A stretch of 12,258 nucleotides of DNA from a virus (taxonomy: Duplodnaviria; Heunggongvirae; Uroviricota; Caudoviricetes), in the IMG/VR virus record IMGVR_UViG_2585427784_000003, positions 1-12,258 of that record. The stretch is one strand, 5' to 3'. A program made the translations under genes and the position numbers. The number at the start of each line of letters is the position of its first letter. Position 1 is the first letter of the stretch. The notes beneath the pieces were generated by a model. It saw only the letters and a list, made by a program, of their open reading frames with translations, had not been told where the DNA came from and made no database searches. This document shows positions 1-12,258 of the stretch, piece by piece.

Positions 1-1284
1 TTACTTCTTCGCCTCTGCAACCACTTTACTACCCACGCCGCGGTTATTGTATTCCCACATGCGGTTGTAGTTAGTGTCATTCAGATTGCGCTGTATTTCG
101 TCGTTATCATCTACGCTGCCGGTATTACCCGCAAACGGACGATTAGAGATCACCGCATCGGCCCACGGTTTCGCCGTGTTAAAACCTTCGTTGATGGCGC
201 TATCACGGATCACCACCTGACCGTTGGTATTGGCATCAACATCCAGCGAGCGGCCCAGTTGCGCCACACCATCACCGAAAGCATTGAAACGGCTGTTTAC
301 GGCGAGGAAACCGTAGTAAATGTTGGACAGCGTAGCCGGTGCAAACACATACGCTTCTTGCTGAGTACGTGAGTTCACCACGCGGAATTCGGTGTTATCG
401 AACACCACTGCGCCGCGACCAGAAACGATATCCACATCCCCTTCAATGTAGCTGTTGGTCACCAGCGTACGCGGCTGACGATTCGTTTCCAGACGGTTCT
501 GCACACCGCTGTTGGTGACAAAGAAGGTGTTCTGACGACCGAGAATGTTAACGTTGTTAATCTGTACCTGGTCACCATCAGTACGCAGTGCCACCGCCGG
601 ATGGTTACCTGCATCTACGCTATCGCCCAGCGTGTTTTCGATGGTCAGATTTTGCAGTTGCAGGCCATTGTTTTGTGACCAGAAGACCGCAGAGCAGAGA
701 ACACCGATACTGTCGCTGCGTTTGCTCTGGCAGCTATCGTACATATACCACGCTGGTTTACCTGGCATATATTTGCCGCGCGGGTTGACGTCGTGACGCC
801 AGTCGGCAGGGCTCATGCCACCATCAAGGGAAAGCCCAATCTTCACATCAATCGGTTTTTCACCTGTACCGTACAGAGTAATTCCACCCGGAGCGGCAGG
901 GACATATACCGTTCCCTGATACTCACCAGGCATCACGGCAATATACTGGCGCTTGTTGGTACGCTTGATAATTGCCGCATCTACCGCCGCCTGAATCGTG
1001 GTATGCGTTACACCTTGAGTGCCCGCCGGGCCGACAACAAAGTCAGGTTGCGCAGGCAGGGTAATCGGGGAAGGATTCCACGCTGCAGCACCTGGTGTCA
1101 GGGATGCAAAATAGTGTTGAGCATCGAAATTCTGCGCTTCTTTTGCCGACAGAATCGGGCGAGAAGAGGTACCAGGCGCGGTTTGATCAGAAGGACGTTG
1201 ATCGGGCGGGGTTGAGCTACAGGCGGTCAGCGTCACGCCAAAAGCCAATGCCAGCGCCAGACGGGAAACTGAAAATGTGTTCAC
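1..1284 (-). CDS. ybhC: Host pectinesterase-family outer-membrane lipoprotein (YbhC-like), complete 427 aa
   Basis: Full-length 427-aa ORF with a lipoprotein signal and lipobox (MNTFSVSRLALALAFGVTLTAC). Sequence and length match what I recall for E. coli YbhC, and it sits directly next to the lambda att core as expected for the gal-side flank of attB-lambda. No alignment was run. Confidence 0.85.
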   Translation of the reverse strand: MNTFSVSRLALALAFGVTLTACSSTPPDQRPSDQTAPGTSSRPILSAKEAQNFDAQHYFASLTPGAAAWNPSPITLPAQPDFVVGPAGTQGVTHTTIQAAVDAAIIKRTNKRQYIAVMPGEYQGTVYVPAAPGGITLYGTGEKPIDVKIGLSLDGGMSPADWRHDVNPRGKYMPGKPAWYMYDSCQSKRSDSIGVLCSAVFWSQNNGLQLQNLTIENTLGDSVDAGNHPAVALRTDGDQVQINNVNILGRQNTFFVTNSGVQNRLETNRQPRTLVTNSYIEGDVDIVSGRGAVVFDNTEFRVVNSRTQQEAYVFAPATLSNIYYGFLAVNSRFNAFGDGVAQLGRSLDVDANTNGQVVIRDSAINEGFNTAKPWADAVISNRPFAGNTGSVDDNDEIQRNLNDTNYNRMWEYNNRGVGSKVVAEAKK

Positions 1285-1330
1285 AGGTTGCTCCGGGCTA
1301 TGAAATAGAAAAATGAATCCGTTGAAGCCT

Positions 1331-1345
1331 GCTTTTTTATACTAA
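1331..1345. other. attL: attL common core (lambda O region, GCTTTTTTATACTAA)
   Basis: Exact 15-bp lambda core at 1331-1345, with host-type sequence (tgaagcct) on the ybhC side and phage P' arm sequence (gttggcattataaaaaagcattgc...) on the int side. Confidence 0.93.
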
Positions 1346-1422
1346 GTTGGCATTATAAAAAAGCATTGCTTATCAATTTGTTGCAACGAACAGGTCACTA
1401 TCAGTCAAAATAAAATCATTAT
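1346..1422. promoter_or_regulatory. attP P' arm: IHF H' site and Int arm-type sites P'1 to P'3
   Basis: An IHF-like motif (tatcaatttgttg, about 1371-1383) is followed by contiguous arm-type repeats (aggtcactat, cagtcaaaat, aaaatcattat) at about 1391-1422. The spacing to the int stop, about 81 bp from core centre, is what I recall for lambda. Confidence 0.8.
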
Positions 1423-2489
1423 TTGATTTCAATTTTGTCCCACTCCCTGCCTCTGTCATCACGATACTGTGATGCCATGGTGTCCGACTTATGCCCGAGA
1501 AGATGTTGAGCAAACTTATCGCTTATCTGCTTCTCATAGAGTCTTGCAGACAAACTGCGCAACTCGTGAAAGGTAGGCGGATCCCCTTCGAAGGAAAGAC
1601 CTGATGCTTTTCGTGCGCGCATAAAATACCTTGATACTGTGCCGGATGAAAGCGGTTCACGACGAGTAGATGCAATTATGGTTTCTCCGCCAAGAATCTC
1701 TTTGCATTTATCAAGTGTTTCCTTCATTGATATCCCGAGAGCATCAACATGCAATGTTGTTGGGATGGCAATTTTTACGCCTGTTTTGCTTTGCTCGACA
1801 TAAAGATATCCATCTACGATATCAGACCACTTCATTTCGCATAAATCACCAACTCGTTGCCCGGTAACAACAGCCAGTTCCATTGCAAGTCTGAGCCAAC
1901 ATGGTGATGATTCTGCTGCTTGATAAATTTTCAGGTATTCGTCAGCCGTAAGTCTTGATCTCCTTACCTCTGATTTTGCTGCGCGAGTGGCAGCGACAGG
2001 GTTTGTTGTTATATGGCCTTCAGCTATTGCCTCTCGGAATGCATCGCTCAGTGTTGATCTGATTAACTTGGCTGACGCCGCCTTGCCCTCGTCTATGTAT
2101 CCATTGAGCATTGCCGCAATTTCTTTTGTGGTGATGTCTTCAAGTGGAGCATCAGGCAGACCCCTCCTTATTGCTTTAATTTTGCTCATGTAATTTATGA
2201 GTGTCTTCTGCTTGATTCCTCTGCTGGCCAGGATTTTTTCGTAGCGATCAAGCCATGAATGTAACGTAACGGAATTATCACTGTTGATTCTCGCTGTCAG
2301 AGGCTTGTGTTTGTGTCCTGAAAATAACTCAATGTTGGCCTGTATGGCTTCAGTGATTGCGATTCGCCTGTCTCTGCCTAATCCAAACTCTTTACCCGTC
2401 CTTGGGTCCCTGTAGCAGTAATATCCATTGTTTCTTATATAAAGGTTAGGGGGTAAATCCCGGCGCTCATGACTTCGCCTTCTTCCCAT
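1419..2489 (-). CDS. int: Lambda integrase (tyrosine recombinase), 356 aa
   Basis: ORF translation MGRRRSHERRDLPPNLYIRNNGYYCYRDPRTGKEF...REWDKIEIK is near-identical to lambda Int as I recall it, with the same length and the same position relative to att and xis. Confidence 0.97.
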   Translation of the reverse strand: MGRRRSHERRDLPPNLYIRNNGYYCYRDPRTGKEFGLGRDRRIAITEAIQANIELFSGHKHKPLTARINSDNSVTLHSWLDRYEKILASRGIKQKTLINYMSKIKAIRRGLPDAPLEDITTKEIAAMLNGYIDEGKAASAKLIRSTLSDAFREAIAEGHITTNPVAATRAAKSEVRRSRLTADEYLKIYQAAESSPCWLRLAMELAVVTGQRVGDLCEMKWSDIVDGYLYVEQSKTGVKIAIPTTLHVDALGISMKETLDKCKEILGGETIIASTRREPLSSGTVSRYFMRARKASGLSFEGDPPTFHELRSLSARLYEKQISDKFAQHLLGHKSDTMASQYRDDRGREWDKIEIK

Positions 2490-2685
2490 TTCTGATCCTC
2501 TTCAAAAGGCTACCTGTTACTGGTCGATTTAAGTCAACCTTTACCGCTGATTCGTGGAACAGATACTCTCTTCCATCCTTAACCGGAGGAGGGAATATCC
2601 TGCACTCGCGTACCCATCGACGAACTGTTTCAAGGCTTCTTGGGCGTCGCTGGCGTGCGTTCCACTCCTGAAGTGTCAAGTACAT
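2467..2685 (-). CDS. xis: Lambda excisionase, 72 aa
   Basis: MYLTLQEWNARQRRPRSLETVRRWVRECRIFPPPVKDGREYLFHESAVKVDLNRPVTG... matches lambda Xis from memory. Its 3' end overlaps the int start by 23 nt, as in lambda. Confidence 0.95.
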   Translation of the reverse strand: MYLTLQEWNARQRRPRSLETVRRWVRECRIFPPPVKDGREYLFHESAVKVDLNRPVTGSLLKRIRNGKKAKS

Positions 2686-2712
2686 CGCAAAGTCTCCGCA
2701 ATTACACGCAAG

Positions 2713-2732
2713 AAAAAACCGCCATCAGGCGG
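2713..2732 (-). terminator. Small GC hairpin plus U6 on the minus strand (intrinsic-terminator-like), overlapping the orf55 stop
   Basis: Minus strand reads g-ccgcc-tgat-ggcgg-tttttt: a 5-bp GC stem, 4-nt loop and six U. The stem is short, so function is uncertain. Confidence 0.3.
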
Positions 2733-2892
2733 CTTGGTGTTCTTTCAGTTCTTCAATTCGAATATTGGTTACGTCTGCATGTGCTATCTGCGCCCACAGC
2801 ATCCAGTGGTCATAGCAGTCGCTGATGTTCTCGGCTTCGATAACTCTGTTGAATGGTTCTCCATTCCATTCACCTGTGACTCGGAAGTGCAT
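2725..2892 (-). CDS. Lambda orf55-like small hypothetical protein, 55 aa (below the ORF-track length cutoff)
   Basis: Hand translation of the minus strand gives MHFRVTGEWNGEPFNRVIEAENISDCYDHWMLWAQIAHADVTNIRIEELKEHQAA then a stop. This matches my recollection of the small lambda ORF just upstream of xis in the pL operon. Confidence 0.6.
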   Translation of the reverse strand: MHFRVTGEWNGEPFNRVIEAENISDCYDHWMLWAQIAHADVTNIRIEELKEHQAA

Positions 2893-2942
2893 TTATCATC
2901 TCCAAAAAACAAACCCCGCCGTAGCGAGTTCAGATAAAAGAA

Positions 2943-2962
2943 ATCCTCGTCAGTGCGAGGAT
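2943..2962 (-). terminator. Hairpin (7-bp stem atcctcg/cgaggat) followed on the minus strand by a U-rich tract
   Basis: Perfect inverted repeat at 2943-2949 and 2956-2962. The minus strand continues ttcttttatctg. It lies at the boundary of the replaced ea8.5/ea22 slot. Confidence 0.25.
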
Positions 2963-3134
2963 GCTGTTCATTGCTGCTATACACTTTTTTGCTCTCAACG
3001 TAAGCGGTAGCCCATTCTGTTGGGTTGGTGCAGTTGCTTTTAGGAAATGCTATTTACCCCTTAAATGTCGGCTGAAAGAGCTAAAATCCATGCAAAAAAT
3101 TTACGCAATTTTGTGTATTATTGTGCAGTAAGTA

Positions 3135-3737
3135 ATGAGCTATTTTCTGCGCAAAAAATGGATGGTAAATTTGTCCGGGTCAGGAAAAATTTTATGGGCG
3201 CTAAACATGAAAAAAGATTCGTATCCTTATTTGATTTGCATGACAGTTTCAGGGCTGATCTTTATTTTCCTTTTCTTCTGGTGGCGGGCAGATATCTACA
3301 GGGTCACGTTTCTTAATCAGAGTATATCCCACTATTACATTCTGTTTAGCATGGGAATAGCTTTTCTGTTATCTCTGTTTTGGGTTAAGAAGGGGATAGT
3401 AAAACAAAGAGGCTGGAAGAGTCTGTCAGCATACCTTAAGGTTTATGCAGGGATGTGCATATTTGCTGGATTTTTTCTGATTATACCCCTTACGACACTA
3501 ACTTATTTTTTGCCTGGAGAGACATCGTCTTATGTTGCACCGTATCGGTATACTTCCGGTAGTTCAAAAAGTTGTTCTGGAGCTGAGGTGGATGACCCCG
3601 ATCTACATGAGAATATTCGCATTTGCTATCCGTATCGCAATTATGAGTACGATAATATTATCTATGTTGAAAAGAAAATTAATATATTAGGTGCGGTAGT
3701 GACATATGCACAGACCGCGCGTGATGATACTGAATGA
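3135..3737 (+). CDS. Cargo (moron) gene: integral membrane protein with three predicted TM helices and a ~70-aa soluble C-terminus; function unknown
   Basis: 200-aa ORF on the strand opposite to the pL operon, in visibly AT-rich DNA. Hydrophobic segments are LICMTVSGLIFIFLFFWW, YYILFSMGIAFLLSLFWV and VYAGMCIFAGFFLIIPLTTLTYF. Alternative in-frame starts lie at 3162 and 3207; none has a strong ribosome-binding site, so the start is uncertain. Confidence 0.5.
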   Translation: MSYFLRKKWMVNLSGSGKILWALNMKKDSYPYLICMTVSGLIFIFLFFWWRADIYRVTFLNQSISHYYILFSMGIAFLLSLFWVKKGIVKQRGWKSLSAYLKVYAGMCIFAGFFLIIPLTTLTYFLPGETSSYVAPYRYTSGSSKSCSGAEVDDPDLHENIRICYPYRNYEYDNIIYVEKKINILGAVVTYAQTARDDTE

Positions 3738-3773
3738 TATAGTATATAGCGGGCAAGTTTTAGTTAATTTATC

Positions 3774-3795
3774 GAGGTAATATAATTTACCTCGA
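3774..3795 (+). terminator. Hairpin downstream of the membrane-protein gene (8-bp stem cgaggtaa/ttacctcg, 6-nt loop)
   Basis: Perfect 8-bp inverted repeat about 37 bp after the stop at 3737. There is no clean U-run after it, so this is only a candidate terminator. Confidence 0.3.
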
Positions 3796-3947
3796 CTCGT
3801 TTGTTCTGGTATTAATATTTCGCTTTACGACCGATTTTTATCTGATGATATCATGCGGTTTTCATATACTGACTTACTGTCTTTTCTCCGTTAGCGATTT
3901 TCTCCTGCTCAGCGATGATTTTATCTTTGGCTTCTAGTTAATTTCGC

Positions 3948-4169
3948 TCACTTCGAACCTCTCTGTTTACTGATAAGCTCCAGATCCTCCTGGCAACTTG
4001 CACAAGTCCGACAACCCTGAACGACCAGGCGTCTTCGTTCATCTATCGGATCGCCACACTCACAACAATGAGTGGCAGATATAGCCTGGTGGTTCAGGCG
4101 GCGCATTTTTATTGCTGTGTTGCGCTGTAATTCTTCAATTTCTGATGCTGAATCAATGATGTCTGCCAT
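3948..4169 (-). CDS. orf73: Lambda exo-xis region Orf73: TraR/DksA-family C4 zinc-finger protein
   Basis: 73-aa ORF with the four-cysteine motif CCECGDPIDERRRLVVQGCRTCASC. Position and size fit lambda orf73, a TraR homologue. Confidence 0.8.
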   Translation of the reverse strand: MADIIDSASEIEELQRNTAIKMRRLNHQAISATHCCECGDPIDERRRLVVQGCRTCASCQEDLELISKQRGSK

Positions 4170-4223
4170 CTTCCATTAATCCCTGAATTGTTGGTTAATA
4201 CGCTTGAGGGTGAATGCGAATAA

Positions 4224-4246
4224 TAAAAAAGGAGCCTGTAGCTCCC
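4224..4246 (-). terminator. Intrinsic-terminator-like hairpin on the minus strand between orf61-like and orf73
   Basis: Minus strand reads (g)ggagc-tacag-gctcc(t) followed by ttttttatta. It starts about 20 bp after the orf61-like stop. Confidence 0.45.
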
Positions 4247-4267
4247 TGATGATTTTGCTTTTCATGT

Positions 4268-4579
4268 TCATCGTTCCTTAAAGACGCCGTTTAACATGCC
4301 GATTGCCAGGCTTAAATGAGTCGGTGTGAATCCCATCAGCGTTACCGTTTCGCGGTGCTTCTTCAGTACGCTACGGCAAATGTCATCGACGTTTTTATCC
4401 GGAAACTGCTGTCTGGCTTTTTTGATTTCAGAATTAGCCTGACGGGCAATGCTGCGAAGGGCGTTTTCCTGCTGAGGTGTCATTGAACAAGTCCCATGTC
4501 GGCAAGCATAAGCACACAGAATATGAAGCCCGCTGCCAGAAAAATGCATTCCGTGGTTGTCATACCTGGTCTCTCTCAT
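4268..4579 (-). CDS. orf61: Lambda orf61-like exo-xis protein (longest ORF 103 aa; an internal start at 4483 would give 71 aa)
   Basis: Its start overlaps the orf63 stop by 20 nt, which I recall as the lambda orf61/orf63 arrangement. The ORF is longer than the 61 aa I remember for lambda orf61; cause unknown. Confidence 0.5.
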   Translation of the reverse strand: MRETRYDNHGMHFSGSGLHILCAYACRHGTCSMTPQQENALRSIARQANSEIKKARQQFPDKNVDDICRSVLKKHRETVTLMGFTPTHLSLAIGMLNGVFKER

Positions 4580-4751
4580 CTGCTTCTGCTTTCGCCACCA
4601 TCATTTCCAGCTTTTGTGAAAGGGATGCGGCTAACGTATGAAATTCTTCGTCTGTTTCTACTGGTATTGGCACAAACCTGACTCCAATTTGAGCGAGGCT
4701 ATGTGCCATCTCGATACTCGTTCTTAACTCAACGGGAGATGCTTTGTGCAT
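4560..4751 (-). CDS. orf63: Lambda exo-xis region Orf63, 63 aa
   Basis: 63-aa ORF ([37 protein letters not shown]...) at the expected place between orf60a and orf61. Confidence 0.75.
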   Translation of the reverse strand: MHKASPVELRTSIEMAHSLAQIGVRFVPIPVETDEEFHTLAASLSQKLEMMVAKAEADERDQV

Positions 4752-4906
4752 ACAGCTCCCCGTTTATTATTTATCTCCTCAGCCAGCCGCTGTGCTTTCA
4801 GGGGATTTCGGATAACAGAAAGGCCGGGAAATACCCAGCCTCGCTTCGTAACGGAGTAGACGAAAGTGATCGTGCCTACGCGGATATTATCGTGAGGATG
4901 TTTCAT
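4724..4906 (-). CDS. orf60a: Lambda exo-xis region Orf60a, 60 aa
   Basis: [60 protein letters not shown]. The start codon overlaps the exo stop by 4 nt, as in lambda. The ORF track begins two codons earlier, at 4912. Confidence 0.8.
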
Positions 4907-5583
4907 CGCCATTGCTCCCCAAATACAAAACCAATTTCAGCCAGTGCCTCGTCCATTTTTTCGATGAACTCCGGCACCATCTCGTCAAAACTCGCTATAT
5001 ACTTTTCATTCCGCTCAATCACGACATAATGAAGGCCTTCACGCTTCATACGCGGGTCATAGTTGGCAAAGTACCAGGCATCTTTTCGCGTCACCCACAT
5101 GCTGTACTGCACCTGGGCCATGTAAGCCGACTTTATGGCCTCGAAACCACCGAGCCGGAATTTCATGAAATCCCGGGAGGTAAACGGGTATTTCAGCTCA
5201 AGGCCATTGCCGTCACTGCATAAACCATCGGGAGAGCAGGCGGTGCGCATACTTTCGTCGCGATAGATGATCGGGGATTCAATAACATTTACGCCGGAAG
5301 TGAACTCAAACAGGGTTCTGGCGTCGTTCTCGTACTGTTTTCCCCAGGCCAGCGCTTTAGCGTTAACTTCCGGAGCCACACCGGTGCAAACCTCAGCTAG
5401 CAGGGTGTGGAAGTAGGACATTTTCATGTCAGGCCACTTCTTTCCTGATCGGGGCTTTGCTATCACGTTGTGAACTTCTGAAGCGGTGATGACGCCGAGC
5501 CGTAATTTGTGCCATGCATCATCCCCCTGTTCGACAGCTCTCACGTCGATCCCGGTACGCTGCAGGATAATGTCCGGTGTCAT
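4903..5583 (-). CDS. exo: Lambda exonuclease (Red-alpha), 226 aa
   Basis: [65 protein letters not shown]...[11 protein letters not shown] is near-identical to lambda Exo from memory. Confidence 0.97.
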
Positions 5584-5684
5584 GCTGCCACCTTCTGCTC
5601 AGTGGCTTTCTGTTTCAGGAATCCAAGAGCTTTCACTGCTTCGGCCTGTGTCAGTTCTGACGATGCGCGAATGTCGCGGCGAAA
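5580..5684 (-). pseudogene. bet: 3' remnant of bet (Red-beta): only the last ~34 codons, no start codon
   Basis: The minus-strand frame ending in the ATGA overlap with exo reads ...[34 protein letters not shown] then a stop, matching the lambda Bet C-terminus. Upstream the frame reaches a stop at about 5724 with no ATG, and homology ends at about 5684. Confidence 0.85.
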
Positions 5685-5906
5685 TACCAGAACATGCGGG
5701 CCAATGCGCTTACTGATGCGGAATTACGGCGCAAGGCTGCCGATGAACTGACTTGTATGACCGCGCGAATTAACCGTGGTGAGGCGATACCTGAACCAGT
5801 AAAACAACTTCCTGTCATGGGCGGTAGACCTCTAAATCGTGCACAGGCTCTGGCGAAGATCGCAGAAATCAAAGCGAAGTTCGGACTGAAAGGAGCAACT
5901 GTATGA
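5685..5906 (+). pseudogene. P: 3' remnant of replication gene P (C-terminal ~74 codons); an ATG at 5694 gives a 70-aa ORF
   Basis: Plus-strand frame reads YQNMRANALTDAELRRKAADELTCMTARINRGEAIPEPVKQLPVMGGRPLNRAQALAKIAEIKAKFGLKGATV then a stop, matching the lambda P C-terminus from memory. It begins directly at the bet junction, and the stop overlaps the ren start. Confidence 0.85.
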
Positions 5907-6184
5907 CGGGCAAAGAGGTAATTATTCATTATCTGGAGACGCACAAGAGCTTCTGTGCGCAGGACGTTGCTGCGGCAACAGGTGTGACAGTAACCTGCAT
6001 AAATCAGGCAGCAGCTAAAATGGCGCGGGCAGGAATCCTGGTCATTGATGGTAAGGTCTGGCGAACGGTGTATTACCGGTTCGCTACCAGAGAAGAACGG
6101 GAAGGAAAGGTGAGCACGAACCTGATTTTTAAGGAGTGTCGCCAGAGTGCCGCGATGAAGCGGGTGTTGGCGGTATATGGGTGA
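5903..6184 (+). CDS. ren: Lambda Ren protein, 93 aa
   Basis: MTGKEVIIHYLETHKSFCAQDVAAATGVTVTCINQAAAKMARAGILVIDGKVWRTVYYRFATREEREGKVSTNLIFKECRQSAAMKRVLAVYG matches lambda Ren from memory. Ribosome-binding site aaggag lies upstream, and the start overlaps the P stop (ATGA). Confidence 0.85.
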   Translation: MTGKEVIIHYLETHKSFCAQDVAAATGVTVTCINQAAAKMARAGILVIDGKVWRTVYYRFATREEREGKVSTNLIFKECRQSAAMKRVLAVYG

Positions 6185-6479
6185 TTAGTTATTACTTGAT
6201 TTGATGGTTATCTCGAAAACATCCAATCAAATTTAATGGTTTGCTTTGTGCGGGGAACTATAACAATGTTTCTAGCTTGGTGCTGTATGTATTAGTGAAT
6301 TAGTAGGGAATATATCCACACATTGATTAACACAAAAATATTTTAGATATTAAATGTAACTCAAAGGTTGAGTAATAATGGTTGTGTAGCGTATAACAGG
6401 ATGCTGAGGTAGTATTAAACAATGAATAAATCTGATTGACAAGCACCAGATAATACTGCGGGTCAATCATTAGACATGA

Positions 6480-6512
6480 ACGCCACTAGTTACTGAGAGT
6501 AACTAATGGCGT
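6480..6512. repeat. Near-perfect 15-bp inverted repeat (acgccactagttact / agtaactaatggcgt, one mismatch, 3-nt loop) in the AT-rich spacer
   Basis: Read directly from the sequence. It lies about 45 bp beyond the 3' end of the HD-domain gene and about 300 bp after ren. It may be a terminator or a protein-binding site. Confidence 0.3.
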
Positions 6513-6554
6513 TGTGTTTATAGTTAAGATGTTTTTTAAAACATCAGGGGGGCT

Positions 6555-8102
6555 CTACTTGTCTTTTTTAATATGATCAATCTCATCATTAAGACATTTA
6601 TCTATTTTTTTTATTAACACATTAATTTCTTCGGTGTTTTGGAGTTGAGTTGTCTTAGAAACAAAAACTCGAATAAAGAATTTAACATAGTGATAGGGTT
6701 GAAGTACATCGTTATACTTACATAAATCATTTATTGTATACTTGCCGCCTGTTTCTTTTTTTATTATTTTAGCTTGACTTGTATCGATATCTTTAAAGTT
6801 ATCTTCAATCTGAAAATCAAGAACCCATTCATCTCCTTTTAAATTATCCTCAATGATTTTGTTGATTTTCTTAGATATATTTTGTTTATATTCTTTGTAT
6901 CTGTTGTCGGAAATGTTAACATTAGAAAACGTGTGTTTTTTTTCATATATTTTTTTCCAAACATTTCTATCAACAATATCTTGAATTATAGCTTGAGAAT
7001 TTTTATCTAATGTGTTTTTAAGAGTGTTTTCTAAAAACGTTTTGTCTGGGTTTTCACGATAAAAGTGTTTGATGGACTCAATGAGAGTGTTTTTAGATTT
7101 TAAAGAGACAACATCATCAGTTTTTTTTCTAGAACACGCTTTGTTAAGCATCGCAGATAGTGCACGATTGGTCTTATGAAAATAAACTTGACTATAAAGC
7201 CCACTTCTTGCATTGGCAAATTCTAGTATTGAATCCATACCACTTTCTTTATATGCCAGGTAAACACTATTTTCAACTTTCACAGGAATAAATGACATTA
7301 ATAATCGTCCATAATCATAAATCCCATATTTAACGCCGGAGAAGTAGCTATCTCTAAGTAGGTAGTCCATTCTGTCCGCATCTATAGGTGAAGATGATAT
7401 GATTGAACCTAATAAAGGATATACATTTACTCCCTCAATGTTATTTTTAAAATCATATCTTTTATCAACAATTTTTATAATGCTTTCTGGATTAATAGCC
7501 GCTATGTTTTCTTTATAGACATCGTCGTCATTTGATTTATCTTGGGCTTCATTTTTTAATTCTTCAATAATTTCTTTAATAAAAATACATGATACTTGTT
7601 CGTGGGTTAACTTGTCATTATCACTTAAAGATATAATCTTATCGTATTGTTTATTTCCTTCAGTTTTGCATTTTTCTTTGAAATCTTTTACGGATATTGC
7701 AAAACTATCGAATTGGTGGGCAAGTGGGCCATGCCCAACATCGTGTAACAATGCTGCAATACGTAACTCCTGTATAAGACTTGAAGGCATTTTTTTTATA
7801 TCTAAATATAGATCAATGCCCATATTTTTTCGATTGTAAATTAGTGCATTTATATCAATATTTTTTAATATTTCATACGATAAATGCATTACACCGACAG
7901 AGTGTTCAAAGCGAGAGTGCATTGCAGAAGGAAATACTTTATATAGAAACGTGTTCTGCCTGATATCTCGTAGTCGTTGGAATAAAGGATGGTCAATTAT
8001 CTTTTTTTCTAGCTTAGTTATTCGAATCACTCCATGTATGGGATCTAAAAACTTCCCCAGAAGTAAGTCTTCAAAGTTCTCAAGTTTGTTTTTGTTTGTC
8101 AT
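6555..8102 (-). CDS. HD-domain dNTP triphosphohydrolase-like protein (SAMHD1/dGTPase family) with a long K/N/D-rich C-terminal extension, 515 aa
   Basis: Motifs seen in the translation: PLFQRLRDIRQ...HSRFEHSVGV, LLHDVGHGPLAH and DADRMDYLLRD, the metal-binding H...HD...D set of SAMHD1/Dgt-type enzymes. Ribosome-binding site aaggaaa precedes the ATG at 8102. The gene is visibly AT-rich. Confidence 0.85.
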   Translation of the reverse strand: MTNKNKLENFEDLLLGKFLDPIHGVIRITKLEKKIIDHPLFQRLRDIRQNTFLYKVFPSAMHSRFEHSVGVMHLSYEILKNIDINALIYNRKNMGIDLYLDIKKMPSSLIQELRIAALLHDVGHGPLAHQFDSFAISVKDFKEKCKTEGNKQYDKIISLSDNDKLTHEQVSCIFIKEIIEELKNEAQDKSNDDDVYKENIAAINPESIIKIVDKRYDFKNNIEGVNVYPLLGSIISSSPIDADRMDYLLRDSYFSGVKYGIYDYGRLLMSFIPVKVENSVYLAYKESGMDSILEFANARSGLYSQVYFHKTNRALSAMLNKACSRKKTDDVVSLKSKNTLIESIKHFYRENPDKTFLENTLKNTLDKNSQAIIQDIVDRNVWKKIYEKKHTFSNVNISDNRYKEYKQNISKKINKIIEDNLKGDEWVLDFQIEDNFKDIDTSQAKIIKKETGGKYTINDLCKYNDVLQPYHYVKFFIRVFVSKTTQLQNTEEINVLIKKIDKCLNDEIDHIKKDK

Positions 8103-8163
8103 GAGGCTTTCCTTTTGCTGTAGTTATAATACGAAATTTAAATAGTAATGATGTTTATAGTTT

Positions 8164-8192
8164 CAATGTGTTATCTAATGGTTAACACATTG
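8164..8192. promoter_or_regulatory. Perfect 10-bp inverted repeat (caatgtgtta, 9-bp spacer, taacacattg) about 60 bp upstream of the HD-domain gene start; candidate operator
   Basis: Perfect palindrome arms read directly. No U-run follows on either strand, so a protein-binding site is more likely than a terminator. Confidence 0.3.
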
Positions 8193-8460
8193 TGATGTAG
8201 CATATCAATATGGATTCATATGTTCAATTGGTCTGTGGAGTTTAGTTATGAATAAGATTGATTCTGGTAATACTTTGTAGTTTAAGCTAGAGGCGGGATT
8301 CGTGATGTTCAAATCAGTATGTAATGGAGGTTGTGCATTAGTACTTGCTGCTGGAAATTAAAAATAAAGTTGCAAGTAATCGACGTTTTCCGAGAGGAGG
8401 ATGTAGCATCGCTGACCAAAAAGTATCAACGATGCCTGTTTTGTTTTAACTACAAATTAA

Positions 8461-9804
8461 TTAAATTGCATCTGCAAACTCTGGGATTTTTCGCTCAAGT
8501 ATGATTGATGAGTTGCTGTTGTCGCTTTTTTTATTTTCATGATTACGAATAGCCAATGACTCATTAAAGTCTTTTGCGACTGCTGTCTCAATAAATTCAA
8601 TTTCTGAATCAGAGTGTTTTTTAACAGCTTCTTTGATCTCATCCAGAGTAACATAGAAAAACTCTTTTCTACGATTTACAAGATTGACTCTCTTTTTATC
8701 GAAGACATCATGTAGTTTTTTTTCTAATGATGGAGCGTCCTCCGAATAAATCATGGCATGCACATCAAAAATAAAAGGAACAGATGCATCACCAAGCTCA
8801 TTTACACGGTCTTGTGGATCAAGACGTCGTGTCATGCCTATTTTATAAACATTCTCCCCAAAAGAACCTATGTTCGAAATAATATAAACATGACCTTGTT
8901 TGGTTTGTTGTGCCATGGATAATGCTCTTTGATGCTTTGATTCAGCCTGCGACAAACTCTGTTCTAGTTCGGCAATGCGATTTTCGAGGCGCTGCTTCAT
9001 GTCACCAGTAACTTTTTCCATTTCCTTTCTTGCAGCTTCAATTGCTTTTTTATAACGGCGCTCTTCTGCCTCTGCGTCTTGCATGGCCTTTTCTATTTCT
9101 CGTTGTGCACGCTCCTCCTCTCTCATTTGTGCCCTTATTTCTGCCTGTTCTTCTTTTTCTTTCTGTTTTTGCTCACGATATTCATGGGTAAGCCACAACT
9201 CCTCAAGTTTTTTATTAAGGTATTTAGTATTTATATATATGTGATTTTGCTCGTTTAGTTTATTTATGGCCTCAAATGCCTTTGTGATGCGTTCTTCCAT
9301 TTTAGTGATATTTTTCCACGTGCAATTACTAATTGCAGCATCACATTCATTATTAAATGCTCTAGTAGTTAGCCTAATATTTCTGTCTGTCATTTTTTTA
9401 CCCTCTGCTCGAGAGCCTTCAACAGTCCATTGGGTTGTGCAATATACTGCACCAGAGTGGGTTTTATCCCGCAGCATTAATTTCTGTTCATCCCTGATGG
9501 ATTTTATTTTGTTTTTAAATTGCTCTGAATCTTCAAAATTAAAATGAGGTTCGTAAAATCCTAGTTCGGCTAGTTCAACATCTTCTGAATAAATAGAAAT
9601 TTGCTTTACTAGCTTATCATATATTTCTTTCTTCTCTTTATAAGTTCTTCTTAGTTCTTGGATTTGTTTATTGATACCATCCATTTTTTCAATGGTGTTT
9701 GTTAGTTCATTATTGGCATTTTCTTTTACTTTTTGGGACTCTTCTTTTATAATGGAGTATTCTTGCTCTGTTTTCTCAATAAGCTTCTTACATTCCTCTT
9801 CCAC
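8461..9804 (-). CDS. DUF4041 plus T5orf172 (GIY-YIG-like) protein with a central coiled coil, 447 aa as called; it probably begins upstream at 9964 (see frameshift finding)
   Basis: DUF4041-like block (...GFYEPHFNFEDSEQFKNKIKSIRDEQKLMLRDKTHSGAVYCTTQWTVEGSRAEGKKMTDRNIRLTTRAFNNECDAAISNCTWKN...), then an E/K/R/Q-rich coiled coil, then a T5orf172-like block (GHVYIISNIGSFGENVYKIGMTRRLDPQDRVNELGDASVPFIFDVHAMIYSEDAPSLEKKLHDVFDKKRVNLVNRRKEFFYV). The called start is a GTG with no ribosome-binding site. Confidence 0.85.
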   Translation of the reverse strand: MEEECKKLIEKTEQEYSIIKEESQKVKENANNELTNTIEKMDGINKQIQELRRTYKEKKEIYDKLVKQISIYSEDVELAELGFYEPHFNFEDSEQFKNKIKSIRDEQKLMLRDKTHSGAVYCTTQWTVEGSRAEGKKMTDRNIRLTTRAFNNECDAAISNCTWKNITKMEERITKAFEAINKLNEQNHIYINTKYLNKKLEELWLTHEYREQKQKEKEEQAEIRAQMREEERAQREIEKAMQDAEAEERRYKKAIEAARKEMEKVTGDMKQRLENRIAELEQSLSQAESKHQRALSMAQQTKQGHVYIISNIGSFGENVYKIGMTRRLDPQDRVNELGDASVPFIFDVHAMIYSEDAPSLEKKLHDVFDKKRVNLVNRRKEFFYVTLDEIKEAVKKHSDSEIEFIETAVAKDFNESLAIRNHENKKSDNSNSSIILERKIPEFADAI

Positions 9805-9856
9805 ATTAAAATAATCTGCAAAGCGAGATTTGTATTCTTCATTTTTTTGATTGCTA

Positions 9857-9964
9857 TCACTTAATTCTAATTGTATTTTTTTTGATGCGTTTGATTGCAG
9901 CTATATATAGAACAAGAACAACCAATAAAAATATGATTGCAAGTAATAGTGGAGTTTGAGTCAT
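9857..9964 (-). CDS. 35-aa ORF encoding a single transmembrane helix (MTQTPLLLAIIFLLVVLVLYIAAIKRIKKNTIRIK); probably the displaced N-terminus of the DUF4041 gene
   Basis: ATG at 9964 is preceded by aagga with about 9-nt spacing. The ORF ends 53 bp before the GTG of the 447-aa ORF, and the two frames differ by one nucleotide across an A8 run (coding strand; T8 at 9876-9883 on plus). Confidence 0.45.
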   Translation of the reverse strand: MTQTPLLLAIIFLLVVLVLYIAAIKRIKKNTIRIK

Positions 9965-10390
9965 TCGTGCTATTCCTTACGGACAATTTAAGACGTTTTG
10001 TATTAAATCCTGTTCAATGTGTATGCGGGTGATTGCTACCGCTTACAATCTTCATAATTATCAGTTAGATAGACTCGCTAGTAAATAATTTCATTTTTTG
10101 CAATATTCTTATTGAATATTTCAATTTATGAAATGAGCTCTTTATCCTTTCAAGGCGAAAGGTTTCTTCTTCGGAAATATTTGCTCTCGTGTGACGTATA
10201 AAGGCCTTTGATTTTTAAAAAACAGTAGGAAATAATATAGTTACTGTCGGCCTGAACACCCGGCGGTGGGGTTGCGCTAAACGGGGACGTTTATGCGCAC
10301 ATACAATCTAAACTCTCTTCTCCCTTCACAGATGCAGAAATGCACCTGCGATTTTTTGCATCCAACGTTTGACCTCTGCGGAGGTGAAGC

Positions 10391-10846
10391 ATGAACCTAC
10401 CACAAGATGGCATCAAATTACATCGTGGCAACTTCACCGCTATCGGCCAGCAGATCCAGCCTTATCTGGAGGACGGAAAATGCTTTCGCATGGTGCTTAA
10501 ACCGTGGCGTGAGAAACGCAGTCTTTCCCAGAGTGCACTCAGCCACATGTGGTACAGCGAAATCAGTGAATACCTTATCAGCAGGGGTAAAACGTTCGCC
10601 ACTCCAGCTTGGGTAAAAGATGCTCTCAAACACACATATCTCGGTTATGAAACCAAAGACCTGGTTGATGTCGTAACCGGTGATATCACCACTATCCAGT
10701 CGTTACGCCATACCTCCGACCTTGATACCGGAGAGATGTATGTCTTCCTGTGTAAGGTTGAAGCCTGGGCGATGAATATTGGCTGCCACCTGACTATTCC
10801 GCAGAGCTGCGAGTTCCAGCTGCTGCGTGATAAGCAGGAGGCGTAA
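10391..10846 (+). CDS. ybcN: DLP12-type nin-region protein YbcN, 151 aa
   Basis: [67 protein letters not shown]... matches E. coli YbcN from memory. Ribosome-binding site ggaggtg lies upstream. Confidence 0.88.
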
Positions 10847-11016
10847 TGGCTACACCGCTTATTCGTGTCATGAACGGACACATCTACAAAATACCAAATC
10901 GTCGTAAGCGTAGGCCTGAGCTGAAACCATCCGAAATACCAACACTGCTCGGATATACCGCCAGCCTGGTTGATAAAAAATGGTTGCGACTGGCAGCAAG
11001 GAGGAATCATGGCTGA
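10846..11016 (+). CDS. ninE: NinE, 56 aa (below the ORF-track length cutoff)
   Basis: Hand translation: [56 protein letters not shown]. The start overlaps the ybcN stop (TAATG). Confidence 0.8.
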   Translation: MATPLIRVMNGHIYKIPNRRKRRPELKPSEIPTLLGYTASLVDKKWLRLAARRNHG

Positions 11017-11299
11017 TTTGAGAAAAGCAGCGCGTGGTCGGGAATGCCAGGTAAGAATCCCTGGCGTATGTAATGGCAATCCTGAAACGTCTGTACTGGC
11101 ACATATCCGGCTGGCTGGATTGTGCGGTACCGGTATCAAACCGCCAGACCTGATTGCCACCATTGCATGTTCTGCCTGTCACGACGAGATCGACCGTCGC
11201 ACGCATTTTGTTGACGCTGGATATGCAAAAGAATGCGCGCTGGAAGGTATGGCGAGAACGCAGGTTATCTGGCTGAAAGAGGGGGTAATTAAGGCGTGA
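11009..11299 (+). CDS. ybcO: DLP12-type YbcO (putative nuclease), 96 aa from the ATG at 11009
   Basis: [96 protein letters not shown], preceded by aggagg. The ORF track starts earlier, at 10970. Confidence 0.85.
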
Positions 11300-11658
11300 A
11301 TACCTACAATATCACATTACCCTGGCCGCCGAGCAATAATCGCTATTACCGCCATAATCGCGGGCGCACGCACATCAGCGCAGAGGGGCAGGCATACCGC
11401 GAAAACGTCGCCCGAATCATTAAAAACGCAATGCTGGATATCGGCCTGGCTATGCCTGTGAAAATCCGCATTGAGTGTCACATGCCGGATCGCCGTCGCC
11501 GTGACCTGGATAATCTACAAAAGGCCGCTTTTGACGCACTCACCAAAGCAGGTTTCTGGTTGGATGATGCTCAGGTCGTTGATTACCGCGTTGTGAAGAT
11601 GCCGGTTGTCAAAGGTGGAAAGCTGGAACTGACCATCACTGAACAGGGAGATGAATGA
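11296..11658 (+). CDS. rusA: Holliday-junction resolvase RusA, 120 aa
   Basis: [95 protein letters not shown]... matches E. coli RusA from memory. Confidence 0.95.
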
Positions 11659-11795
11659 TGTTTGAGTTTTATATGGCAGAACTTCTTCGCCACCGCTGGA
11701 TGCGCCTGCGCTTATATCGTTTCCCCGGTTCTGTTTTGACCGATTACCGAATACTGAAGAATTACGCCAAAACACTGACAGGAGCAGGAGTATGA
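11655..11795 (+). CDS. ylcG: Small nin-region protein YlcG, 46 aa (below the ORF-track length cutoff)
   Basis: Hand translation: [46 protein letters not shown]. The start overlaps the rusA stop (ATGA). Confidence 0.7.
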
Positions 11796-11880
11796 AGTCA
11801 GAGATAACAATCAACTAATACTGTTTTGTTGATTTTTGCTTGTAATTGGCGTTCTGGTCTGAGTTTTGTGGAGTAAGTTG

Positions 11881-12258
11881 ATGCGTGATATTCAGATGGT
11901 TCTTGAGCGTTGGGGAGCGTGGGCGGCTAATAATCATGAAGATGTGACCTGGTCGTCCATTGCCGCCGGTTTTAAGGGATTAATTCCTTCAAAAGTAAAA
12001 TCTCGCCCACAATGTTGTGACGATGACGCGATGATCATTTGCGGGTGCATGGCCCGTCTGAAAAAGAACAACAGCGATTTGCATGATTTATTGGTGGACT
12101 ATTATGTCGGCGGCATGACTTTTATGGCGCTTGCACGTAAGCATGGGCGATCTGATTGTTGGGTTGGCAGGATGCTCCAGAAAGCTGAGGGCGTAGTGGA
12201 GGGTATGCTGATGGTGTTGGATCTCCGATTGGAGATGGATGCTGATTGTTCGAAATAA
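11881..12258 (+). CDS. quuD: Late-gene antiterminator Q (DLP12 QuuD-like), 125 aa from the ATG at 11881
   Basis: [75 protein letters not shown]... matches DLP12-type Q from memory. Ribosome-binding site ggag lies 7 nt upstream, and the stop codon is the last three bases of the window. Confidence 0.8.

Follow-up and report, generated by a model that had tools for sequence, protein, structure and literature searches.

A membrane-protein cargo gene shared by lambdoid and P2-like prophages, with a possible role in superinfection exclusion

We have analysed a stretch of 12,258 nucleotides (nt) of viral DNA (IMG/VR record IMGVR_UViG_2585427784_000003, positions 1 to 12,258; hereafter the window). 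It comes from the lambda attachment site of Escherichia coli and forms the left arm of the lambdoid prophage found there. At the place where lambda carries ea8.5 and ea22, the window has on the opposite strand a gene for a small protein predicted to lie in the inner membrane. The gene is self-contained prophage cargo (a moron), and the unit that it forms with its flanking signals is found in two unrelated families of temperate phages, the lambdoid phages and the P2-like phages of E. coli, Salmonella and Klebsiella. Genomic context and protein topology tentatively suggest that the protein acts in superinfection exclusion, with genome entry blocked at the periplasmic face of the inner membrane, a reading that we favour while placing it somewhat short of probable. 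The gene is publicly annotated and has been catalogued in one survey, yet it is uncharacterised, and no relative with a known function could be detected.

A cassette shared by two phage families

The initial annotation of this DNA, made from its sequence, had proposed that the ea8.5/ea22 slot is replaced by an AT-rich segment, and comparison with lambda bears out both parts of the proposal. Homology to lambda forms two blocks (window 1331–2962 and 3936–5686, 97–98% identity by blastn), and the 973 base pairs (bp) between them are unrelated to the 1024 bp that they stand in for (lambda 29356–30379), which in the lambda record comprise ea8.5 and nearly all of ea22. An unrelated segment between almost identical flanks is the presence/absence pattern of a moron. 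All that is left of ea22 is its start and first five codons (VSEIN), on the minus strand at 3937–3951, followed immediately by a stop. Composition deviates in the manner of a moron as well, the guanine plus cytosine (GC) content being 37–39% in the unit against 46–50% in int-xis, orf55, orf73 and exo. The features of the slot are as follows.

2943–2962, minus strand: left hairpin, a t-L4-type terminator with an 8-bp stem and a U-tract on the minus strand only, common to lambda
2963–3935, no strand: replacement segment, 973 bp in place of lambda 29356–30379 (blastn and lambda annotation)
3070–3827, plus strand: transferable unit made up of the gene, the region upstream of it and the terminator hairpin; a P2-borne copy in E. 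coli (locus L031, 6864–7619) matches it at 76% identity over 761 bp
3772–3795, plus strand: right hairpin, probable terminator of the gene, with a 9-bp stem 35 nt past the stop codon and a weak to modest U-tail

The DNA homology between the window and the P2-borne copy L031 takes in 137 nt upstream of the ATG, the gene itself and 90 nt downstream, including the right hairpin. This hairpin behaves as a terminator that the gene brings with it: its folding free energy is −12.9 kcal/mol (z −3.3), none of 200 shuffled sequences folds as well, and its pairing is kept in L031 through compensatory changes. The left hairpin is annotated as t-L4, on the minus strand, in an old int-xis record of phage 434 (M60848), and it forms the left edge of the replaced segment. 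Because it is shared with lambda and has a U-tail on the minus strand only, it is not part of the cassette and would end leftward transcription in the pL direction. Both of the hairpins first described as bracketing the gene thus exist, but only the right one belongs to it. The initial view of the gene as independently expressed prophage cargo on the opposite strand is well supported by the exact boundaries, the deviating composition and the movement of hairpin and upstream region into an unrelated phage family.

Within the lambdoid phages, the 1055-bp region that holds the gene (2893–3947) is 98.5–99.5% identical, and in the same position, in phages 434, 2B8 and mEp332, and at least 80% of it is covered in 905 of 5426 complete E. 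coli genomes (about 17%). CPT_434_36 of 434 (UMO75300.1), XSB40999.1 of mEp332 and the 2B8 homologue are the same gene, roughly 98–99% identical and lying between orf55 and orf73. Their start calls differ (TTG at window 3171 in 434, ATG at 3135 in mEp332), and the annotation is just ‘putative membrane protein’. The 434 genome announcement says only that the morons of that phage differ from those of lambda and does not discuss the gene. Literature searches with WP_001348592, WP_000711113, UMO75300 and XSB40999 found no mention, and the sequence is absent from the DefensePredictor supplements.

Homologues of 55–78% identity (two Salmonella clades, Klebsiella michiganensis and E. coli) all come from P2-like prophages, where they occupy the interval bounded by the portal gene Q and the replication gene A. 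Rousset et al. (2022; PMC9122126) define this gpA–gpQ interval, home to old and tin, as the defence hotspot of P2, whereas the window copy sits in a lambdoid prophage. Table S5B of that survey lists a system #4 with 470 occurrences, no Pfam domain and the entry ‘3 TM’ (PMC9122126), and its protein is homologous to the window protein over the full length (51% identity over 168 amino acids (aa), E 3e-55). The family has therefore been seen previously but catalogued only, and the catalogue entry adds no functional knowledge. Hotspot neighbours of the membrane gene include a YafO toxin and a 790-aa AAA_16 protein.

In E. coli 2011C-4251 (L035) a frameshifted ea22-like fragment that starts MSEINYQALRE comes after the P2 copy, which indicates that the cassette reached the P2 hotspot from a lambdoid exo-xis region. 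With its passenger fragment of ea22, this link between the two sites documents a case in which unrelated temperate phages have exchanged cargo.

Several further observations concern the loci in which copies are found. In the K. michiganensis P2-like prophage (L028–L030, 3281–6623) the 790-aa AAA_16 (STAND-like) protein and a 279-aa protein share the gpA–gpQ hotspot, and this pair is probably a separate defence system. Two small co-oriented open reading frames (ORFs) without a Pfam match, of 81 or 123 aa and of 119 aa, stand ahead of the membrane gene in Salmonella P2-like prophages (L004, L007, L025 and L026; 5284–5888 or 6227–6831); the pair precedes the gene in many Salmonella P2 hotspot loci and is absent from the E. 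coli and Klebsiella loci. A 99%-identical copy on a 3.5-kb contig (L015, JARKOR010000073.1) assigned to a ‘Candidatus Nanosynbacter’ metagenome-assembled genome is almost certainly E. coli prophage contamination of the bin.

The window itself reads, from its left end, ybhC (1–1284, minus strand), int, xis, orf55, the region of interest, a gene for a 73-aa TraR/DksA zinc-finger protein (3948–4169, minus strand), the DUF1382 and DUF1317 genes (orf63 and orf60a) and exo. The DNA of the zinc-finger gene is 97% identical to lambda at about 30392–30613, where NC_001416 annotates no gene. The prophage is a deletion derivative: lambda homology stops at 5686, just past exo, and after the junction (5686–5906) come the C-terminal 70 codons of replication protein P and then ren, so that the prophage lacks bet, gam, kil, cIII, N, cI, cro, cII, O and the greater part of P. 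Since everything between exo and the C-terminus of P is lost, pL is gone from the window; in this prophage, therefore, only the gene's own promoter could drive the membrane gene, and no antisense transcription from pL would oppose it. A search of the window against Rfam found no RNA families.

The gene, its upstream region and its protein

The features of the gene, its upstream region and its product are the following.

2961–3131, plus strand: 56-aa ORF, ‘putative membrane protein’ in the 434 and mEp332 records, starting inside the t-L4 hairpin
3100–3129, plus strand: three direct repeats in 10-bp phase (TTACGCA at 3101, TTGTGTA at 3111, TTGTGCA at 3121), degenerate in the window; candidate operator or activator array
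3135–3737, plus strand: longest ORF, 200 aa
3163–3171, plus strand: candidate extended −10 element, TGgTAAATT, about 45 bp downstream of the repeats
3207–3737, plus strand: most likely coding sequence of the inner-membrane protein, 176 aa plus stop
3228–3509, plus strand: three transmembrane helices, at residues ~8–27, 42–60 and 79–101 (hydropathy and AlphaFold)
3510–3734, plus strand: C-terminal domain, residues 102–176, a small five-stranded beta-barrel predicted to be periplasmic

The 200-aa ORF of the initial annotation exists, but its start does not hold, and the coding sequence is most likely 3207–3737. Homologues of 36–78% identity (Salmonella, Enterobacter, Klebsiella, Citrobacter and Pseudescherichia) are 169–186 aa long and align from residue M25 of the ORF or start a few codons away, and the P2-borne copy L031 has an in-frame TAA within the supposed N-terminal extension; both point to ATG 3207 as the start. 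A Shine-Dalgarno-like GGG(C)G stands 8 nt before this ATG, at a conserved position. The 56-aa ORF was considered as a part of the unit and rejected: it lies mostly outside the conserved unit, has no PHROG match and has one doubtful, out-of-register tblastn match, and it is probably non-coding.

The gene is conserved and under purifying selection, which answers the doubt over its conservation raised at the outset. The ratio of non-synonymous to synonymous substitution rates (dN/dS, omega) is 0.09–0.17 in pairwise comparisons of phage-borne copies whose synonymous divergence (dS) exceeds 1, and 0.21–0.38 among chromosomal orthologues; the C-terminal domain is the most constrained part (omega 0.06–0.13). 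Copies are intact and full-length at 74 of the 78 IMG/VR prophage loci. That the ORF might be a chance reading frame or a decaying remnant without function can be dismissed on these figures, on the confident AlphaFold model described below and on the architecture common to sixty cluster representatives, even though its annotation is only ‘hypothetical protein’, its DNA is AT-rich and a generic scan calls no promoter for it.

Upstream of the gene, the best-conserved feature in an alignment of six clades (51–99% protein identity) is a series of TTGTGCAnnn decamers, conserved across E. coli and Salmonella phage-borne clades. P2-borne copies have three or four perfect decamers (four in some Salmonella-type copies, three in others), and the proximal repeat is invariant; none was found upstream of the chromosomal orthologues. 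To judge from its conservation, the array is a putative binding site for a regulator that is probably host-encoded, which suggests that expression is regulated by a host DNA-binding protein and is not simply constitutive. The candidate −10 element recurs as TGnTAAATT in copies of 70–78% identity (alignments and regular-expression searches), and its position predicts a transcription start near 3178, past every alternative start codon.

The 434 record OL657226 annotates the two proximal repeats as a CII-consensus site. We reject this assignment, since TTGY-N6-TTGY occurs five times in the 12-kb window, near chance (one occurrence being the genuine pI site), and the conserved motif extends beyond the length of a CII half-site. 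Of the resemblances of the decamers to DnaA boxes, tor boxes and OmpR-family sites none fits well, and none is claimed. In two IMG/VR prophage contigs (L070 and L075) other DNA, which resembles IS10 ends, takes the place of the native upstream region as far as one common point (…CAG|CGCTAAACATG), 11 bp before the ATG equivalent to 3207, and the gene is thereby parted from promoter and repeat array.

The protein was first described as three hydrophobic helices with a soluble tail of about 70 aa, a description upheld by hydropathy and by an AlphaFold2 model built on a 21-sequence alignment, with a tail of about 75 aa. The model has a mean predicted local distance difference test (pLDDT) score of 85, with helices at 5–33, 38–61 and 70–101 and then five strands at 105–171; modelled alone, the C-terminal domain reaches 89. 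The loop between the second and third helices (residues 61–78) has six lysine or arginine residues and no acidic residue, and the C-terminal domain is net acidic, so that by the positive-inside rule the N-terminus would be in and the C-terminus out. In the resulting topology the N-terminus and the loop are predicted to be cytoplasmic and the barrel to sit directly on the periplasmic face of the inner membrane. The invariant residues C123 and C140 belong to a pattern of C-x-G-[AVIM] and a second cysteine 15–17 residues on, which is present in 24 of the 25 family members checked, the most distant included; a C123–C140 disulfide in the periplasmic domain would fit it. Proteins of 112 aa made up of the third helix and the periplasmic domain only (P0147, P0082 and related clusters) are very common, P0147 being on at least 1000 contigs, and may be products of truncated genes or a functional single-pass short form.

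Relatives on chromosomes and in databases

Not all relatives are phage-borne. The Enterobacter orthologues share a single syntenic position, with a HAMP-GGDEF gene and a gene for an AI-2E transporter downstream of them and, in many cases, a LysR gene immediately before. E. mori, E. cloacae, E. quasihormaechei, E. intestinihominis, E. vonholyi and RIT637 all have this locus, with 64–97% identity between species. A copy in Klebsiella sp. is likewise chromosomal and in a non-phage context, and copies were also found in Pseudescherichia and Citrobacter. Since vertically inherited chromosomal orthologues exist in Enterobacter, the family is not exclusively phage cargo, and these orthologues argue that it is not solely an anti-phage device. 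In some Enterobacter species (L008, L017 and L024; 5085–6510) a LysR-family gene on the same strand ends 17 nt before the start of the orthologue, an arrangement suggestive of co-transcription; in others the LysR gene is degraded or absent and the membrane gene persists.

The homology and profile searches that the initial annotation had called for were run, and they returned relatives and no informative family. Screening 5.8 billion proteins brought up 73 relatives, and an exhaustive profile search, run on 1.84 billion cluster representatives, gave a compact family of only 60 representatives, all with the same architecture. Pfam gave only a sub-threshold match to DUF6057, which we take as noise, NCBIfam gave no match, and none of the 5027 models of PADLOC-DB v2 matched at E≤0.1. 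The single PHROG match, phrog_1416 (function unknown), covers the C-terminal 88 aa, and no PHROG annotated as an exclusion function was matched. A profile search of PDB sequences at E≤10 yielded nothing meaningful. The protein is not a diverged Ea22 or Ea8.5, the other identity that had been considered at the outset (hhalign probability 0.1% for Ea22 and 0.2% for Ea8.5).

Possible functions and known systems

If the protein is an exclusion factor, the gene would be transcribed from its own promoter in the lysogen, and the product would stop incoming phage genomes where the inner membrane faces the periplasm. Any specific recognition has to take place in the periplasm or within the membrane, because only the four N-terminal residues and the 18-residue loop are predicted to be cytoplasmic. 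The high conservation of the periplasmic domain, with no sign of an arms race, favours a partner in the host envelope; a conserved part of the envelope on which phages depend is a more likely ligand of the domain (receptor masking) than a phage protein that evolves fast. Receptor masking is exemplified by DicB with ManYZ and by Cor or Llp with FhuA. The repeated occupation of the P2 gpA–gpQ hotspot, in four separate clades, lends circumstantial support to the original guess of an exclusion or abortive-infection factor.

A number of results weigh against exclusion. Homology gives no support to an exclusion or abortive-infection function: no similarity to known exclusion or defence proteins was found among PHROGs, in PADLOC, or with P22 SieA and HK97 gp15, and fold searches returned only generic OB-like barrels and generic helices. 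The tables of systems that were cloned and tested (S2A and S2B of PMC9122126) do not contain the system #4 sequence, and such hotspots also carry cargo that is not defensive. Vertical inheritance at a syntenic locus, seen in six or more Enterobacter species, together with chromosomal copies in Klebsiella, is a pattern not typical of defence genes and hints at a role for the cell in its envelope. Finally, a generic consensus scan called no promoter upstream of the gene, being blank just where the conserved TGnTAAATT and the repeat array travel with it, and the promoter is predicted only.

The most specific form of the exclusion reading, which we consider rather unlikely, would have the gene represent an uncharacterised, periplasm-facing exclusion family derived from a chromosomal envelope gene of the Enterobacteriaceae. 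Carried as a cassette of promoter, gene and terminator under a host factor that reads the TTGTGCA array, it would shuttle between the lambdoid exo-xis region and the old/tin site of P2 and shield lysogens by masking a conserved inner-membrane component on which many phages depend for genome entry.

The main rival, itself on the unlikely side, is that the protein is a lysogenic-conversion factor of the envelope with no relation to phages, borrowed from a chromosomal gene of the Enterobacteriaceae and altering the physiology of the membrane or periplasm; it might confer, for example, immunity to a toxin that has to pass through or enter the inner membrane (a colicin, a contact-dependent inhibition toxin or a type VI secretion effector), or else stress tolerance. 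The syntenic Enterobacter orthologues beside LysR, GGDEF and AI-2E genes and the further chromosomal copy in Klebsiella speak for it, as do the strong conservation of the periplasmic domain without a diversifying signal and the regulated look of the promoter array; the 434 genome also has other host-directed morons, such as NleC- and NleH-like genes. However, the phage-borne copies lie specifically in the P2 gpA–gpQ hotspot, where most tested cargo is anti-phage, and the Pfam, NCBIfam and PDB searches showed no similarity to known immunity protein families.

An abortive-infection effector, which would be a small polytopic protein that responds to infection by depolarising or permeabilising the inner membrane, as RexB or other single transmembrane effectors do, appears improbable. 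Small membrane proteins in defence hotspots are often interpreted in this way (PMC9122126), and three transmembrane helices are indeed present. Nevertheless, the gene stands alone, with no sensor partner in most contexts, almost nothing of the protein is predicted to be cytoplasmic to sense an infection, and the best-conserved part is the folded periplasmic domain and not the helices. A toxic effector would also hardly be kept as a stable chromosomal gene across Enterobacter species.

We give still less credence to a regulator of the phage's own development, acting on the choice between lysis and lysogeny, for example by modulating a membrane protease or a division protein. The gene does lie in the exo-xis region, whose genes (ea22, ea8.5, orf60a–63) are reported to influence lysogenisation and induction, and the TTGY-N6-TTGY sequence upstream is annotated as a CII site in the 434 record. 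Set against this, the gene is on the strand opposite to pL transcription, and the same cassette serves as cargo both in P2-like prophages, whose regulatory circuits are different, and in a cryptic prophage without any immunity region; a CII-type match is expected by chance, and TTGTGCA exceeds a CII half-site in length.

A membrane-anchored inhibitor of the muralytic enzyme of phage tails, giving Spackle-like exclusion, is very improbable. It was suggested by the loop between the first and second strands of the periplasmic domain, where S-C-S-G-A-x-V is invariant among homologues of at least 41% identity and resembles SxSGAxY, the motif of the MliC/PliC lysozyme inhibitors (PMC6033465). Membership of MliC/PliC (COG3895) is rejected, however, because the serines are not kept in the deep family (only C-x-G-[AVIM] is), the YxxxTKG motif is absent, the fold differs (a five-stranded against an eight-stranded barrel) and there is no Pfam or PDB match.

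Returning to exclusion, its consequences would be considerable. The gene is very common (about one sixth of complete E. coli genomes, 470 P2 hotspot loci and phage 434), yet it has no assigned function, Pfam family or structural relative; if the exclusion reading is true, this very common cargo gene of E. coli prophages, present also in 434, represents a new, conditionally expressed mechanism of entry block. Such a block would add a new family to the short list of membrane exclusion factors, could point to a host envelope component used in genome entry, and would give a role to a gene that is among the commonest unannotated ones in the P2 defence hotspot. Should the role be in the envelope and unrelated to phages, the gene would still be a widespread lysogenic-conversion gene. 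Nothing found contradicts the expected biology of prophage morons.

A separate defence-like island of 25–35% GC lies further along the window, between ren (5903–6184) and ninB/ybcN (10391–10846), and is present in at least 21 complete E. coli genomes. It holds a 447-aa ORF on the minus strand (8461–9804) homologous to PD-Lambda-1, with a DUF4041 domain (PADLOC E 5e-191; ‘SNIPE associated’ in some RefSeq records), and adjoining it a 515-aa HD-domain protein (6555–8102, minus strand) with weak dGTPase-like matches; the two genes may be a two-gene defence unit. The PD-Lambda-1 homologue matches the model from position 61 only, and just upstream in another frame is a 35-codon ORF with a transmembrane anchor (MTQTPLLLAIIFLLVVLVLYIAAIK..., about 9860–9964, minus strand), so that the gene looks frameshifted here or affected by an indel error in the sequence.

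Among known systems, system #4 (Rousset et al., 2022) shares family, architecture and the form of a single-gene cassette with the window gene, and its P2 hotspot is also occupied by the closer copies of 70–78% identity; system #4 is in P2-like prophages, whereas the window copy is in the lambdoid exo-xis region. The usual occupants of the slot, lambda Ea8.5 and Ea22, are encoded between orf55 and orf73 as well, but on the opposite strand, and are soluble proteins with no similarity to the window protein. Small membrane-anchored OB-like or DUF1093-type beta-barrels (PDB 3npp and 2k5q) also count among the closest known systems.

The proposed action, though not the ancestry, would be analogous to that of receptor-masking proteins or of two exclusion proteins, HK97 gp15 and P22 SieA. 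HK97 gp15, in work of Cumby et al. from 2012, is said to be a moron-encoded inner-membrane superinfection-exclusion protein. Like the window protein it is a small inner-membrane protein from a lambdoid moron with its own terminator, and the entry block proposed here is drawn by analogy with it; unlike it, gp15 has 62 aa as against 176, is encoded among tail genes instead of in the exo-xis region and has no beta-barrel domain, and the two show no profile similarity (hhalign probability 0.7%). SieA of P22 is of similar size (164 aa) and also a polytopic inner-membrane protein; it is expressed from its own promoter in the prophage, as is predicted for the window gene, and shows no profile similarity here either (hhalign probability 0.2%). 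Its layout is different, with one N-terminal transmembrane helix, a soluble helical segment and C-terminal transmembrane helices, whereas the window protein ends in a predicted periplasmic barrel with a conserved cysteine pair, both of which SieA lacks.

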